From an uncultured Candidatus Saccharibacteria bacterium (lineage in GTDB: Bacteria > Patescibacteriota > Dojkabacteria > J137), in NCBI GenBank assembly GCA_964607415.1, contig CAZSKK010000001.1:333469-397468 (forward strand): a stretch of 64,000 nt of DNA, given 5' to 3'. Under the pieces are notes generated by a model. The model was given only the letters and a program-made list of their open reading frames with translations. It was not told the origin of the DNA and did not search any database. Positions within the stretch are counted from its first letter, which is position 1; each line of letters starts with the position of its first letter. This document shows positions 27,999-33,822 of this stretch, one piece after another. The translations under genes and the position numbers were made by a program.

Positions 27999-28426
27999 TT
28001 GCCAATTTTGTATACTTCGGCATGAATATACTGGCTTCATTAAGAAACTTAATTATAAATAACAATCAACAAGAGTATAACCAGCAGGTATCTCAGATGC
28101 TTTTGGATTCACGTGGAGAACTGTCATTAGAATTCATTAGTCCTGATCTTCTTAGATACATTATAGATAACTCCTTTTTACTCTCACCGGATGACACTAT
28201 CAATATTGGTAACACTTTATGTAAAAATGTAAAAGAACTTTACAGTAGTAGATTTGCGGGAATACAAAGCCTTATGCCTGGTGCGTTGCTTGCTATTTAT
28301 GAAAGACTTCAAGAACATTTTCCAGACATAAATAGCGATATGGAGGCTTCAACTTTGGAATTAAGCTTGCGCCCGATAGTAAGTCAAATTGTTCAAGAAG
28401 GCCAAGTTATTAACCCTGAGCCATGA
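27995..28426 (+). CDS. Hypothetical protein (ATGA-coupled to nnr)
   Basis: 143-aa ORF with a 4-nt start/stop overlap with the upstream gene. Confidence 0.35.
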   Translation: MIANFVYFGMNILASLRNLIINNNQQEYNQQVSQMLLDSRGELSLEFISPDLLRYIIDNSFLLSPDDTINIGNTLCKNVKELYSSRFAGIQSLMPGALLAIYERLQEHFPDINSDMEASTLELSLRPIVSQIVQEGQVINPEP

Positions 28427-28938
28427 GCGAAGATATATCTGTAGAAATAGATACTGCTCCTGCAACTCATATCGTAACCAATGACGAAATACTGAACGAT
28501 GAATTGCATTTGGATAACTCGCTTATCGATCAGCTTTTAAGTTTACTAGGGGGCTGTAGTTTCAAAGTTGATGAAGAATCTGAAACCCTAATTATCGAAA
28601 CATACATCCCTGGAAAGCTTGTAAAGCTTCCCCTTCAGGGGATTTTTTCTGATCCAGAAATCCTGAAAATATTTGATGTCATTCAAGGCAGAGATAATTC
28701 AGTATCACTAACTAAGCTTAGCAATCATGCATTGCGACAAGTTGCAAGAAGATTTGGAATAGACCCTTATACTGTATTTGAGCCAATACAAAAAAAGTCC
28801 AGACAAAGACCAGCGCACCTTCACGAAAAAATCACATCAAAATCTGAAGGCAGAAAACAAAGAAATAAACGGATGGCTCGTAAACGTAGGTATAAAAGAG
28901 GTTATGAAGATATGTACAACAAAAATTTTGAACAATAA
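28423..28938 (+). CDS. Hypothetical protein with an Arg/Lys-rich C-terminal tail
   Basis: 171 aa with a 4-nt overlap with the upstream ORF. The tail is KKSRQRPAHLHEKITSKSEGRKQRNKRMARKRRYKRGYEDMY. Confidence 0.35.
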   Translation: MSEDISVEIDTAPATHIVTNDEILNDELHLDNSLIDQLLSLLGGCSFKVDEESETLIIETYIPGKLVKLPLQGIFSDPEILKIFDVIQGRDNSVSLTKLSNHALRQVARRFGIDPYTVFEPIQKKSRQRPAHLHEKITSKSEGRKQRNKRMARKRRYKRGYEDMYNKNFEQ

Positions 28939-28952
28939 AACACCTCCCTTAA

Positions 28953-28970
28953 TCCCTCCTATAGGAGGGA
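28953..28970. terminator. Perfect GC-rich hairpin between convergent genes (a hypothetical gene and dnaK); bidirectional terminator candidate
   Basis: tccctcc-tata-ggaggga, a 7-bp stem in an otherwise AT-rich spacer. Confidence 0.5.
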
Positions 28971-29020
28971 GAAAAAGACGTGACTAAATACCCTAATTCT
29001 TGAATCGTGGATCTTGATTC

Positions 29021-30934
29021 TTATTCTACTACTTCCCCTTCTTCAGGTTCATCTTTATTATCTTCATTCTTACTCTTATCCTCACTCTCACCCTTTGATT
29101 CTTCACCTGCAGCAGCTTCGTACATTTTAGCTCCCACTGCTTGAAGTTTTTCCATTAAGGCATCAACTGCTTTCTTTAAAGCTTCTTGATCAAGTTCAGA
29201 TTTTCCAAGTTCCTCTTTAACAAGTTTAATTTGATCATCTAAAGCTTTTTTATCCTCTTCACTAATCTTATCTTTATTATCTTTAATTAATTTTTCTGCC
29301 TGAAAAACTAATGAATCAGCTTCATTAATAAGTTTCAATCTTTCAACCTCTGCTTTATCTTTAGCTTCGTTTTCTGCTGCTTCTTTAACTAGTTTATCTA
29401 TTTCAGATTCTTCTAAGTGAGTTGACGCAGTAATTGTAATATCTTTTTCTTTGCCAGTTCCTAAATCTTTTGCCTTAACGTTCAAGATTCCATTTGCATC
29501 AATTTTAAATGTAACAGAAAATTTAGGTACACCTCTTGGTGCAGATGGAATTCCGTCTAGTCTAAATACGCCTAGTTCTTTGTTATCTTTAGCTAAAGGT
29601 CTTTCTCCTTGTAAAACTCTAACATCAATTGCATTTTGGTTATCTACAGCAGTTGTAAATCTATCTTCAGACTTTTCTGCAGGGATCGTTGTGTTTCTTG
29701 GGATTAAGATATGCATTTCGCCCATATTAACTTCAAGACCAAGTGATAATGGAGTTACATCTAACAAAGTGATGTCTTCAACACCAGAATCTCCAGCTAA
29801 AACTGCGCCCTGAACTGCAGCTCCAACTGCAACAACTTCATCTGGGTTTACGCTTTGATTTGGTTTTTTACCAAAAAATTCTTCAACTTTTTTTACAACC
29901 AAAGGCATTCTTGTCATTCCTCCAACCATAATTACTTCTTCAATTTCTGTTTTTTCTTTTTTAGCATCTTTTAATGCTTTTTTGATTGGCTCAATAGTTT
30001 TATCTACCAAATCAAGTACAAGTTTTTCATACTCAGATCTTGTTAAATTCATTCTAAAGTGTTTTGGCCCTTTACTATCTGCTGTAATATATGGAAGATT
30101 AACTTCTGTTGATTCGCTTGAAGATAAAGTAATTTTTGCCTTTTCAGCAGCTTCTTTAAGTCTTTGCAGTGCGGCTGGGTCTTCTTTTAAATCAATTCCT
30201 TGTTCTTTTTTAAATTGAGCAATCATATAATCAATCAATACTTGATCAAAGTCATCTCCACCAAGGTGTGTATCTCCATTTGTAGATAAAACTTCGTAAA
30301 CTCCGTCACCTATTTCTAAAATTGAAATATCAAAAGTACCTCCACCCAAGTCGTAAACAGCAATTAACTGATTTTTATCTTTTTTATCCAAACCATATGC
30401 AATTGCTGCAGCAGTAGGTTCGTTAATAATTCTTTTTACATCAAGTCCAGCTACTTTTCCTGCATTTTTTGTTGCCTGTCTTTGAGAATCATCAAAATAT
30501 GCAGGAACTGTAATTACTGCTTCTGTTACAGGTTCACCCAAAAACGCCTCTGCATCTGATTTTAGTTTAGCAAGAACTTTTGCAGAAATAACTTCTGGCG
30601 CAATCCATTTATCACCAAATTGAATTTCAACTCCTCCTTTGTCACTTTTTTTAATGTTGAACGGAAAAAGTTTTATATCTTTTTGAACTTGTTCATCATC
30701 AAATTTTCTACCTATTAACCTTTTTATTGAGTAAAAAGTGTGCTCTGGATTGATAGCCATTTGATTTTTTGCTGTAATCCCTACAACTTCTGATTTATTA
30801 TCTGTATCAATTGCAATGACTGAAGGCGTTGTTCTAGCACCTTCCTTATTGGTAATTACTTCTGGTTTTCCAGCTTGTACAAAAGCAACAACAGAGTTTG
30901 TTGTTCCTAAATCTATTCCTACGATTTTTCCCAT
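29021..30934 (-). CDS. dnaK: Chaperone DnaK (Hsp70)
   Basis: 637 aa with IGIDLGTTNS, DLGGGTFD and VGGMTRMP Hsp70 signatures, and an acidic C-terminal tail. Confidence 0.95.
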   Translation of the reverse strand: MGKIVGIDLGTTNSVVAFVQAGKPEVITNKEGARTTPSVIAIDTDNKSEVVGITAKNQMAINPEHTFYSIKRLIGRKFDDEQVQKDIKLFPFNIKKSDKGGVEIQFGDKWIAPEVISAKVLAKLKSDAEAFLGEPVTEAVITVPAYFDDSQRQATKNAGKVAGLDVKRIINEPTAAAIAYGLDKKDKNQLIAVYDLGGGTFDISILEIGDGVYEVLSTNGDTHLGGDDFDQVLIDYMIAQFKKEQGIDLKEDPAALQRLKEAAEKAKITLSSSESTEVNLPYITADSKGPKHFRMNLTRSEYEKLVLDLVDKTIEPIKKALKDAKKEKTEIEEVIMVGGMTRMPLVVKKVEEFFGKKPNQSVNPDEVVAVGAAVQGAVLAGDSGVEDITLLDVTPLSLGLEVNMGEMHILIPRNTTIPAEKSEDRFTTAVDNQNAIDVRVLQGERPLAKDNKELGVFRLDGIPSAPRGVPKFSVTFKIDANGILNVKAKDLGTGKEKDITITASTHLEESEIDKLVKEAAENEAKDKAEVERLKLINEADSLVFQAEKLIKDNKDKISEEDKKALDDQIKLVKEELGKSELDQEALKKAVDALMEKLQAVGAKMYEAAAGEESKGESEDKSKNEDNKDEPEEGEVVE

Positions 30935-31038
30935 AATAAAAAAAATTAAATTTTAAAAGTATAAAGATTAGAATTATGATTCAAGATTCATGATTCAGGA
31001 AAAGTGAATAATATTCTTGAATCCTGAATCTTAATTCT

Positions 31039-31053
31039 CTGCCTGAAAGGCAG
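31039..31053. terminator. Hairpin downstream of orf183, upstream of the dnaK CIRCE
   Basis: ctgcc-tgaaa-ggcag. Confidence 0.35.
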
Positions 31054-31055
31054 AA

Positions 31056-31082
31056 TTAGCACTTAAAGTATAAGATTGCTAA
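31056..31082. promoter_or_regulatory. CIRCE-like HrcA operator upstream of dnaK
   Basis: TTAGCACTT-aaagtataa-GATTGCTAA. Its TTAGCA-N15-TGCTAA spacing is identical to the CIRCE consensus TTAGCACTC-N9-GAGTGCTAA. Confidence 0.6.
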
Positions 31083-31091
31083 TTTGTTTTG

Positions 31092-31643
31092 TCAAGATTC
31101 ATTCGTTATCATCTTTAAAACCTCAGCAAACCTTTCTTCCTTAAACATAAATAGTGGTCCTTCATAAATTTTTATCTGTCTGAACTTCACATCTTCTTCC
31201 CTTGTGTACCATTGCATAAAAAGTGTTGATGATTCACTAACACCCAATCTATTAAATAAACCGTATAATTTATAGATAGCATAAAAATCATTGCCTACTA
31301 TATTAAGATCACTGGCGTTTGGTCTCCTTTCATCGGTTCTATACTCAGCACTTGCCACTCTTGTGTAAAGACCAGTTATTCTAACCAGATCGGGATGATT
31401 TATTGCTGGGTTCGTATCTATTGTTAAGGCAACTATGTAATCCTCAATTTCCAAAGAAACAACGCCTTTGATATTTGTAAAGCTATGTAATCTAAAGATT
31501 TCACTAATATCTGGTAGCTTTACATTAATATCTTCCAAATCAAAAGCTAATACAGTCACATCTATTGTTTCGCCTGGTTTATAAATATTGGGTATAGATC
31601 TTTTTAAGGTTACTACCTTTCCTATATTTTCACCTTCTATCAT
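31092..31643 (-). CDS. Hypothetical protein embedded in the heat-shock operon between grpE and dnaK
   Basis: 183 aa. Its start overlaps the grpE stop by 4 nt (ATGA). No recognisable motif. Confidence 0.45.
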   Translation of the reverse strand: MIEGENIGKVVTLKRSIPNIYKPGETIDVTVLAFDLEDINVKLPDISEIFRLHSFTNIKGVVSLEIEDYIVALTIDTNPAINHPDLVRITGLYTRVASAEYRTDERRPNASDLNIVGNDFYAIYKLYGLFNRLGVSESSTLFMQWYTREEDVKFRQIKIYEGPLFMFKEERFAEVLKMITNES

Positions 31644-32146
31644 TTTCCAACAATAACTTTTGCTGGTTTCAGAACATTTACTTGTCCTATATATTTATAA
31701 GCTGAACTAATAACAACAATAACCTTATTCTTATTGCGTTCATCCGCAACAGTTTGTATTGCTTCCATCTTTGATCTATCAAATTCATCCCCTACATTTA
31801 CTTCAACTTTTTCAACACCTGCACTTTTTACAGCTGCAATTAATTTATCTTGAGCAGTTTTTAAAGAACTTTTAGCATGTTCTAAATTTAAACCACCATC
31901 TTTCAGTGCAAGCTCCATATCATCGTGAATTTCCAACATCTCAGAAATTAAACCCATATTTGCAATTGCTCCAAAAGTCGCTCTTTCAGCATCCATTCTT
32001 TTTCTGTAGTTATCAAAATCAGCCATAAGCTGGAGCTTTTGACTTTTTAATGCTTCAACTTGCATTTCAAGTTCTTTAAGTTTGCTAATTTCATCATTTT
32101 GAACCTTTACTTCATTTTCTTTTTTATTATGTTTTGCTTTTGTCAT
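31640..32146 (-). CDS. grpE: Nucleotide exchange factor GrpE
   Basis: Coiled-coil N-terminus with ADFDNYRKRMDAE, and a C-terminal beta domain (VLKPAKVIVG). Confidence 0.8.
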   Translation of the reverse strand: MTKAKHNKKENEVKVQNDEISKLKELEMQVEALKSQKLQLMADFDNYRKRMDAERATFGAIANMGLISEMLEIHDDMELALKDGGLNLEHAKSSLKTAQDKLIAAVKSAGVEKVEVNVGDEFDRSKMEAIQTVADERNKNKVIVVISSAYKYIGQVNVLKPAKVIVGK

Positions 32147-32351
32147 ATTATATTAAATTAAAGAATGTAAAAATCTGGTAATTCAATTGAAATTAAGTAG
32201 TAATTCGTTGTAGAACAGAATAACGAAACAAAAATTACGGATTTCAAATTATGTGTTGTTTAACTTGTAATTCTCGATTTGCTTCCTCGTAATTAATGCG
32301 CATACACGACTTACGCTCTCTTATGGCTTTTTACCTCTAAACCTGTTTTCA

Positions 32352-33089
32352 CTACTTCCATCCTCGAATTAAATATCCAATTGTATTTGAAAAGTATTTA
32401 ACTGAAGCTATTACCATTTGATAATTCATTCTATTTGGTCCAACAACTGCTAGGTATCCATTTTTATTATCAGGTAATTTTATTTCTGAAAAAACAACAG
32501 CGTAATCATCAAAAAGGTCAATATCAGCTTCTTCACCAACCAAAACTCTAATTTCAGCATCGCCTCCCTTCTCAAACATTTTTGCAAGTGTCGAGTAATC
32601 TTCTAAAATTCTAAGAATATTTCTAAGCTTTTCCAACTCTCTAAATTCTGGAAGCATAACCATATTTGATAGACCTGCATAATATACATCCTTATCAATA
32701 AGTGCAACTGCGACATTTCCAGTTAAACTATTTAAATAATTTAAACTATTTCGAATTAAATTTTCAGTTTCAAATTTAACTTTGTTTAATTCAATTTTAA
32801 CTTTTTCCCTAGTTACGACATCTATAATATCTTCTGTTTCATCATCAATTTCGTCCAAGTAAAATCTCCAGCCCTTTGTAGTTGGAATCCTTCCTCCGCT
32901 CGAATGTTTCATAAATAAGTATCCCTTTAAAACCAAATCGGACATTTCATTTCTGATTGTTGCAGGACTTACTTTAAATTGATACTTAGTTTGAAGCGCA
33001 AGGGATCCAACAGGTTCCCCTGATGTTATAAAGTCATCAATTATTGCTTTTAAAAGTTGCTGTTGTCTATCGGATAAATCCATATACAC
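32352..33089 (-). CDS. hrcA: Heat-inducible transcription repressor HrcA (short form, 245 aa)
   Basis: LSDRQQQLLKAIIDDFITSGEPVGSLALQTKY...VSPATIRNEMSDLVLKGYLFMKHSSGGRIPTTKGWRFYLD matches the HrcA N-terminal wHTH. Confidence 0.75.
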   Translation of the reverse strand: MYMDLSDRQQQLLKAIIDDFITSGEPVGSLALQTKYQFKVSPATIRNEMSDLVLKGYLFMKHSSGGRIPTTKGWRFYLDEIDDETEDIIDVVTREKVKIELNKVKFETENLIRNSLNYLNSLTGNVAVALIDKDVYYAGLSNMVMLPEFRELEKLRNILRILEDYSTLAKMFEKGGDAEIRVLVGEEADIDLFDDYAVVFSEIKLPDNKNGYLAVVGPNRMNYQMVIASVKYFSNTIGYLIRGWK

Positions 33090-33288: not shown

Positions 33289-33822
33289 ATGAGCAGCGAG
33301 TTCAGAAATAACATGTCTTCAAAAGATTGTTACGGTAGTACAAAAAGCCACAATTCGCGCAATATGGTTGAAAGCCCATGGAAATTTTCTAATGATAGTC
33401 GCTTCAATACTATCTATTTGGCAATTAGTCATGCTTTCAGCTATGCCAATTTGGATGAAGGGGAAGAAACGATTGAGCTCGATAAGGATTTAACAGAAGC
33501 CGACTTAAATCCTGGGGTAATGGAAGTCGATGGTACTGAGTTAAAGGAATTATTAGGTCAAATTCTAGAAACATCAGACTTATCACCTTTTGATCATAAT
33601 ATATTATTCAGAGTTACTAGCTCAAGCGATCCTAATGCTGCATTAATACAAATTTTTACTGAGAACAATGATTTTGTAACTTTATCAGACTTGGAATCTT
33701 ATTTTTGTTCTTTGTTAGTTCAGTTACAAGAACATATTGCTTCAACTGGAATGGAACAGACTCTTAAAAAACTAATTGGGATATCGCTACAAGATGATGA
33801 TGATAATGCTAGTGAAATCTAA
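33289..33822 (+). CDS. Hypothetical acidic protein ending in a poly-Asp tail
   Basis: 177 aa; the C-terminus reads ...LQDDDDNASEI. Confidence 0.35.
   Translation: MSSEFRNNMSSKDCYGSTKSHNSRNMVESPWKFSNDSRFNTIYLAISHAFSYANLDEGEETIELDKDLTEADLNPGVMEVDGTELKELLGQILETSDLSPFDHNILFRVTSSSDPNAALIQIFTENNDFVTLSDLESYFCSLLVQLQEHIASTGMEQTLKKLIGISLQDDDDNASEI

Follow-up and report, generated by a model that had tools for sequence, protein, structure and literature searches.

In Bacillus subtilis and other Gram-positive bacteria the canonical arrangement of the major chaperone genes is an hrcA-grpE-dnaK(-dnaJ) operon under HrcA/CIRCE control. Non-canonical genes occur in DnaK-system loci of other bacteria, for example dafA in the dnaK-grpE-dnaJ-dafA-clpB cluster of Thermus thermophilus and hspR in actinobacterial dnaK operons; both are expressed together with the operon, are conserved within their own clades and have been shown to act in the chaperone system. 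Bacterial genomes in general contain orphan genes of narrow taxonomic range, as well as integration hot spots flanked by conserved core genes, and the small genomes of CPR bacteria are full of species-specific hypothetical genes. The 64-kb stretch of DNA analysed here (the window) contains a heat-shock locus with the same order and strand of hrcA, grpE and dnaK as the B. subtilis operon and, also as in that operon, with CIRCE repeats that overlap sigma-70-type promoters. It differs from the B. subtilis operon in having two CIRCE-promoter units, no dnaJ downstream and an extra, unconserved cistron after grpE. A literature search returned no report of a gene located between grpE and dnaK, nor of heat-shock loci in Dojkabacteria.

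Read along the minus strand, the locus consists of hrcA, grpE, an ORF of 183 codons (ORF183), a CIRCE operator, a hairpin and dnaK (Table 1). The interval between grpE and dnaK is 705 bp long with ORF183 as the sole ORF inside it, and the ATG of ORF183 (31643-31641) shares letters with the TGA of grpE (31642-31640), forming an ATGA overlap. The first-pass annotation had described an hrcA-grpE-dnaK order interrupted by an ORF coupled in this way, and all of these elements were recovered on the minus strand; the ORF is a genuine insertion. It was equally correct that dnaJ does not follow dnaK: the next gene is a convergent ORF without known family, and tblastn with an E. coli J-domain query detected no J-domain anywhere in the 64-kb window. 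A hairpin followed by a second CIRCE had been placed ahead of dnaK; both are present, but in the opposite order, with the CIRCE preceding the hairpin.

Table 1. Positions of genes, operators, promoters and hairpins at the heat-shock locus, in minus-strand order.
Feature	Position in window	Strand	Basis or remark
CIRCE-like operator 1, TTAGCACCT-N9-CTCTGCTAA	33162-33188	-	upstream of hrcA, overlaps candidate hrcA promoter
Candidate hrcA promoter, TTAACT-17-TAAAAT	33178-33150	-	promoter scan
hrcA, heat-shock repressor	32352-33089	-	Pfam PF01628, E = 7.7e-23
grpE, nucleotide exchange factor	31640-32146	-	Pfam PF01025, E = 1.5e-24
ORF183, 183 aa	31092-31643	-	ORF list; no Pfam match
dnaK promoter, TTGACA (31095-31090) - 17 nt - TATACT (31072-31067)	31067-31095	-	11/12 matches
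CIRCE operator 2, TTAGCAATC-TTATACTTT-AAGTGCTAA (N9 spacer)	31056-31082	-	dnaK -10 box inside spacer
7-bp GC-rich hairpin, TCTGCCT-GAA-AGGCAGA	31038-31054	-	dnaK 5' leader, no U-tract; sequence and fold
Long imperfect inverted repeat, GATTCAGGATTCAAGAAT ... CCTGAATCATGAATC	30970-31037	-	second dnaK-leader hairpin; 24 nt, 83% complementary; conserved in L009
dnaK (Hsp70)	29021-30934	-	Pfam PF00012 (HSP70), E = 1.8e-241
Strong hairpin with U-run after dnaK	28941-28985	-	inverted repeat; fold -26.8 kcal/mol, z = -2.49

Operator 2 deviates from the CIRCE consensus at two positions (0.03 such sites expected by chance), and the dnaK promoter that it overlaps had the joint-best score in the promoter scan. 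Operator 1 is degenerate, with five mismatches to the Bacillus-type consensus, and the same variant is found upstream of dnaK in two related lineages, L010 and L095. In the 64 kb there are exactly two occurrences of a relaxed CIRCE core, TTAGCA-N15-TGCTAA, against none in 200 shuffles. The mark of the HrcA/CIRCE regulon, a TTAGCACTC-N9-GAGTGCTAA-like repeat at the promoter of the unit, was found upstream of hrcA in the form of operator 1. The CIRCE core lies directly upstream of dnaK in nearly every lineage surveyed; the operator 2 element in particular is found immediately upstream of dnaK also in L011, L013, L014, L096 and L099. Two layouts were observed in the clade. One has the -10 box (TATACT) within the CIRCE spacer, as for dnaK in the window, L011 (position 6607), L013 (position 5521), L014 and L096, and the other has the -35 box (TTGAC or TTAAC) there, as for hrcA in the window and dnaK in L010 (position 5733) and L095 (position 4629).

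The region between the dnaK promoter and the dnaK start codon (30935-31066, minus strand) is a leader of about 130 nt made up of the short GC hairpin and a long imperfect hairpin of GATTCAAG/GATTCAGG motifs. Its predicted fold has an energy of -33.1 kcal/mol (z = -4.84). L009, the nearest relative, has an almost identical leader and L011 lacks it, and the same distribution was seen for the 7-bp hairpin on its own. The leader could be a leader-stability or thermosensing element; an Rfam scan of the locus, leader included, gave nothing above noise. The 7-bp hairpin was considered as a canonical terminator for ORF183 and rejected, being located downstream of the dnaK -10 box, lacking a U-tract and being absent from the output of the terminator scan. 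Because the leader hairpin has no U-tract, unlike the strong hairpin after dnaK, upstream transcripts may read through into dnaK.

A 26-nt motif, ATTCTTGAATCNTGNATCTTNATTCT, brackets dnaK, with one copy directly after the stop codon (28996-29021) and one in the leader (31013-31038), and an inverted copy with three mismatches is also present in the leader (30970-30995). The motif occurs nowhere else in the 64 kb, where none would be expected by chance; L009 lacks the copy that follows dnaK. The convergent gene beyond dnaK (28423-28938, plus strand) is a 171-aa orphan ORF without detectable counterpart in L009, in which a 159-aa ORF is found at the same position (BLASTP E = 0.067). The strong hairpin between the two genes is likely to be a terminator common to both. 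dnaK is thus bordered on both sides by fast-turnover orphan genes, and the genes that come next, a 143-aa ORF and a YjeF_N gene, are conserved. At the other end of the locus, a 177-aa ORF without Pfam match (33289-33822, plus strand) lies between mutS and hrcA, divergent from hrcA; the equivalent interval of relatives contains different small ORFs or, in L011 and L093, a NUDIX gene, and may be another variable slot.

Several lines of evidence bear on whether ORF183 encodes a protein. The window has a G+C content of 33.1% and stop codons are therefore frequent in it; at this composition chance would produce an ORF of 183 codons or more only 0.014 times per window. A codon log-likelihood trained on the 29 window ORFs with 250 or more codons gave ORF183 a score of +0.232 per codon in its own frame, compared with -0.195 to -1.29 in the other five frames. 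This is near the low end of the host range, as the training genes scored 0.312 on average (sd 0.062, minimum 0.220). The G+C contents at the three codon positions (GC1/GC2/GC3 of 0.41/0.32/0.25) follow the genome pattern (0.45/0.33/0.23), and the overall value of 0.328 matches the genome. Twelve contigs of public assemblies carry a call for the 183-aa gene. The eight loci retrieved, from as many sequencing runs, were identical to the window at the DNA level (100%), and a strain variant from a ninth run had five SNPs in 2290 bp, three of them inside ORF183, with the frame intact. The runs with such contigs are SRR29850203, SRR22443709/10, SRR33509047, SRR7415548/9, SRR20083768, SRR7663064 and SRR23814899. 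One of these three is non-synonymous (a conservative N6S) and two are synonymous, numbers too small for a selection test; weak constraint would be consistent with the share of SNPs that fall inside ORF183. On this evidence ORF183 is taken to be a real gene of host-like composition. Its product of 21.1 kDa (pI 4.97) contains no cysteine, no hydrophobic or transmembrane segment and no signal peptide, and is predicted to be a soluble, acidic, cytoplasmic protein.

Homology searches returned essentially the protein itself. The initial view that it contains no recognisable motif held against Pfam (no match at E <= 1), NCBIfam, PHROGs, PADLOC and PDB sequences (no match at E <= 10). A tblastn search of the window found only ORF183 itself, no relative was found among GenBank phages by tblastn, and peptide-pattern scans gave no credible relative in GTDB genomes, IMG/VR or JGI metagenome contigs. 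A k-mer protein search of 5.8 billion clusters recovered the protein itself alone, and an exhaustive phmmer search of 1.84 billion cluster representatives recovered itself and a single other match (P0027, E = 8.3e-5). The latter is a 956-aa protein with four near-identical ricin-type trefoil repeats and a GH25 lysozyme domain that gives strong matches to ricin profiles. It was rejected as a relative: the score was summed over three near-identical repeat stretches and is spurious, the alignment (26% identity) spans the junction of two trefoil domains, and ORF183 itself had no match at E <= 1 to the ricin-type beta-trefoil profiles (PF14200 and PF00652). Structure prediction, which had been suggested for this protein, yielded no confident fold: AlphaFold2 models computed with no alignment had a mean pLDDT of 33.8 (whole protein) or 36.4 (residues 1-105) and were uninformative, low values being expected for any single-sequence prediction.

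Comparison with L009 defined the inserted DNA precisely. Identities between L009 and the window are 96.7% for DnaK, 91% for the YjeF_N protein, 85% for HrcA and 71% for GrpE. By blastn, homology through hrcA and grpE (75% identity) ends at 31642, in the stop codon of grpE, and resumes at 31104, 12 nt before the stop of ORF183, from where it extends across dnaK (90% identity). The L009 DNA between the two breakpoints contains an ORF of 192 aa whose two strongly hydrophobic segments indicate a two-TM membrane protein. This ORF was rejected as a hyper-diverged orthologue of ORF183 on the basis of a BLASTP E-value of 9.8 and of its two TM helices against none, and orthology is also contradicted by the 75-90% identity of the flanking DNA. 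The resumed block starts with ATCTTGACA, and in both ORFs the TGA forms part of TTGACA, the -35 hexamer of the dnaK promoter; the two ORFs end at the same place because this hexamer is conserved. The dnaK promoter is conserved in L011 as well, and in both relatives it lies where DNA homology resumes. No target-site duplications and no direct or inverted repeats were found at the breakpoints of the insert, and no integrase, tRNA or other insertion signature was found at the slot.

The slot between grpE and dnaK was surveyed in a small sample of 13 lineages, the window included, in which dnaK follows grpE on the same strand. The relatives were gathered one by one through exact-protein look-ups, and none of them had a GrpE between 71% and 100% identical to that of the window. 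GrpE homologues, which place the organism among CPR bacteria of small genome size, were found with 48-71% identity in related CPR contigs, and a GrpE-profile scan of GTDB gave three close relatives among the at least 80 loci listed. A Candidatus Dojkabacteria MAG was the only species-level name among the matches listed, the others being labelled Saccharibacteria or Patescibacteria group. The slot was empty in eight of the 13 lineages (70-311 bp). Five of these (L013, L099, L098, L037 and L103) have a spacer of 70-138 bp with a CIRCE-promoter in all but L103, and three (L102, L095 and L010) have 248-311 bp with no ORF of at least 60 aa. The slot was occupied in the remaining five: by ORF183 in the window, by the gene for the two-TM protein in L009, by a 335-aa HD-domain gene on the opposite strand in L011 (and L012), by an uncharacterised 139-aa ORF on the opposite strand in L014, and by a VapB-like gene together with a PIN-domain gene in L096. 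These cargo proteins are mutually unrelated, an all-against-all BLASTP giving no E-value below 0.05, and the insertions were always located between the grpE stop and the dnaK promoter. In three further lineages (L093, L094 and L101) other genes follow grpE and dnaK is elsewhere or off the contig. Conservation of the gene at this position, a check proposed at the outset, was not borne out: ORF183 was absent from all 12 related lineages, with the slot empty in eight and filled by unrelated genes in four. ORF183 is restricted to one species-level CPR lineage. The compact grpE-CIRCE-dnaK arrangement is common in the survey and is therefore probably ancestral, the original state of the slot probably being a spacer of 70-100 bp. 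In L103 (Candidatus Dojkabacteria KatS3mg085, AP024679.1; 2995-3303, 4026-5916) hrcA is a 102-aa fragment, grpE has 128 aa and dnaK is split into two ORFs of 70 and 564 aa, which suggests frameshifts or assembly errors in that genome.

The anatomy of the locus suggests why the slot could tolerate insertions. Its limits are the stop codon of grpE on one side and the -35 box of the CIRCE-controlled dnaK promoter on the other. With two CIRCE-controlled units, hrcA-grpE and dnaK, DNA inserted between them would disturb neither, and the slot would tolerate unrelated cargo because grpE ends one unit and dnaK has a promoter and operator of its own. Insertion of unrelated cargo at this one site would then have taken place independently in different lineages.

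For ORF183, co-transcription with hrcA and grpE is most likely because it is on the same strand, its ATG overlaps the stop codon of grpE and no canonical terminator precedes it. The sole output of the terminator scan here was a weak hairpin of 5 bp within grpE (32032-32020); no site was reported between grpE and ORF183. ORF183 would most likely be the last cistron of an hrcA-grpE-ORF183 transcript starting from the CIRCE-bearing hrcA promoter, and its translation may proceed by termination-reinitiation of ribosomes finishing grpE; genes at this locus are without obvious Shine-Dalgarno sequences. On this arrangement ORF183 is probably co-expressed with grpE and would be derepressed with hrcA and grpE under heat stress, that is, heat-inducible by position. 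The first-pass annotation had proposed a new member of the HrcA regulon. As regards position this is probable, given the ATGA overlap, the lack of a canonical terminator upstream and the CIRCE operators before hrcA and again before dnaK, but ORF183 does not qualify as a conserved heat-shock factor. Between hrcA and grpE, a non-coding spacer of 205 bp (32147-32351, minus strand) could hold another promoter. In L011 the two genes are about 11 bp apart and nothing corresponds to this spacer, and its conservation in L009 is limited to the ~25 nt that immediately precede the grpE start (TTTAATTTAATATAATATG). The spacer was also considered as a possible RNA and rejected, conservation being confined to those ~25 nt and Rfam giving no match above noise.

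We consider it probable that ORF183 is a genuine, lineage-restricted gene that occupies the grpE-dnaK slot as an accessory passenger and is not a conserved part of the DnaK machine. What such a passenger might do can be approached from the other occupants of the slot. Because the content of the slot turns over and one relative has a PIN/VapB-like pair there, a conflict-type accessory function is a reasonable guess. The product of ORF183 would then be a toxin or immunity protein, or would act against phages as an effector, with the gene carried in a small accessory hot spot and its expression linked to stress. The other fast-turnover cargo in L009, L011 and L014 fits this, as do strict orphan status and presence or absence at species level, both of which are typical of conflict genes. 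A specific assignment of this kind is nevertheless unlikely: toxin, antitoxin and defence profiles gave no match in PADLOC or Pfam, PHROGs gave none either, ORF183 is a single gene with no partner ORF in the interval, phage and viral collections contained no relative, and the sequence carries no sign of nuclease, NTPase or membrane activity.

It is rather unlikely that ORF183 is without function, either as the remains of an acquired gene in decay or as a recently arisen proto-gene whose translation is due solely to its place after grpE. The missing homologue among 1.84 billion representatives, a codon score near the lower edge of the host range, the three of five variant-strain SNPs and the lack of a confident AlphaFold model would all suit such an origin. 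Against this, a frame of 183 codons is very unlikely to persist unselected in DNA of 33% GC, the codon bias is frame-specific and host-like, the frame is intact in both strains with two synonymous changes and one conservative change, and a low pLDDT says little when the prediction is made from a single sequence.

The proposal of a co-chaperone-like factor fared worst. ORF183 would then be a lineage-specific co-chaperone or regulator whose GrpE-coupled synthesis ensures matched stoichiometry and which binds DnaK or GrpE and tunes the cycle. Its position between grpE and dnaK over the grpE stop codon, the absence of dnaJ from the operon and of a J-domain from the window, and an HPD tripeptide at residues 83-85 could be read in this way. 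However, the DnaK of L009 is 97% identical and would need the same partner, yet ORF183 is absent there, as it is from the other relatives, which argues strongly against a core co-chaperone role. Absence from close relatives had been named at the outset as an outcome that would refute the proposal. No DnaJ, GrpE (PF01025) or other chaperone-family Pfam match was obtained at E <= 1. The HPD tripeptide was rejected as a lead to a J-domain (PF00226), with no Pfam match at E <= 1: BLASTP against the J-domain of E. coli DnaJ aligned only 11 residues, at a distance from the HPD, which lies between two strands in both low-confidence AlphaFold models and not, as in a J-domain, in a helix-loop-helix. 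We regard a co-chaperone role as very unlikely, and give equally little credence to a bolder version in which synthesis is deliberately tied one-to-one to GrpE, ORF183 being a lineage-specific modulator of the DnaK cycle or a heat-shock-triggered effector or toxin that senses stress via the HrcA regulon, and the grpE-dnaK gap a dedicated docking site; were it true, this gap in these CPR bacteria would place newly acquired genes under stress control.

In its present state the finding is of little consequence, ORF183 being one of many species-specific hypotheticals in CPR bacteria. As an accessory passenger, it provides a clear example of an orphan that has become attached to a core stress gene, by what appears to be translational coupling, and would offer a convenient test of whether passengers gain stress-linked functions if a cultured or enriched system existed. 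More widely, insertions recur within sharp boundaries between grpE and dnaK in this clade, which calls for caution in reading function from operon position. Like dafA and hspR, ORF183 is a non-canonical gene inside a DnaK-system locus; unlike them, it occurs in a single species-level lineage and resembles no known family in sequence. The slot resembles known integration hot spots in its conserved flanks, sharp breakpoints and alternative, unrelated cargo including a toxin-antitoxin pair, but is very small (one or two genes), lies inside a stress operon and showed neither an integrase or tRNA nor repeats at its edges. As a whole this is an ordinary heat-shock locus of the HrcA/CIRCE type in which the promoter architecture is split, and ORF183 is a new orphan protein of a familiar kind.
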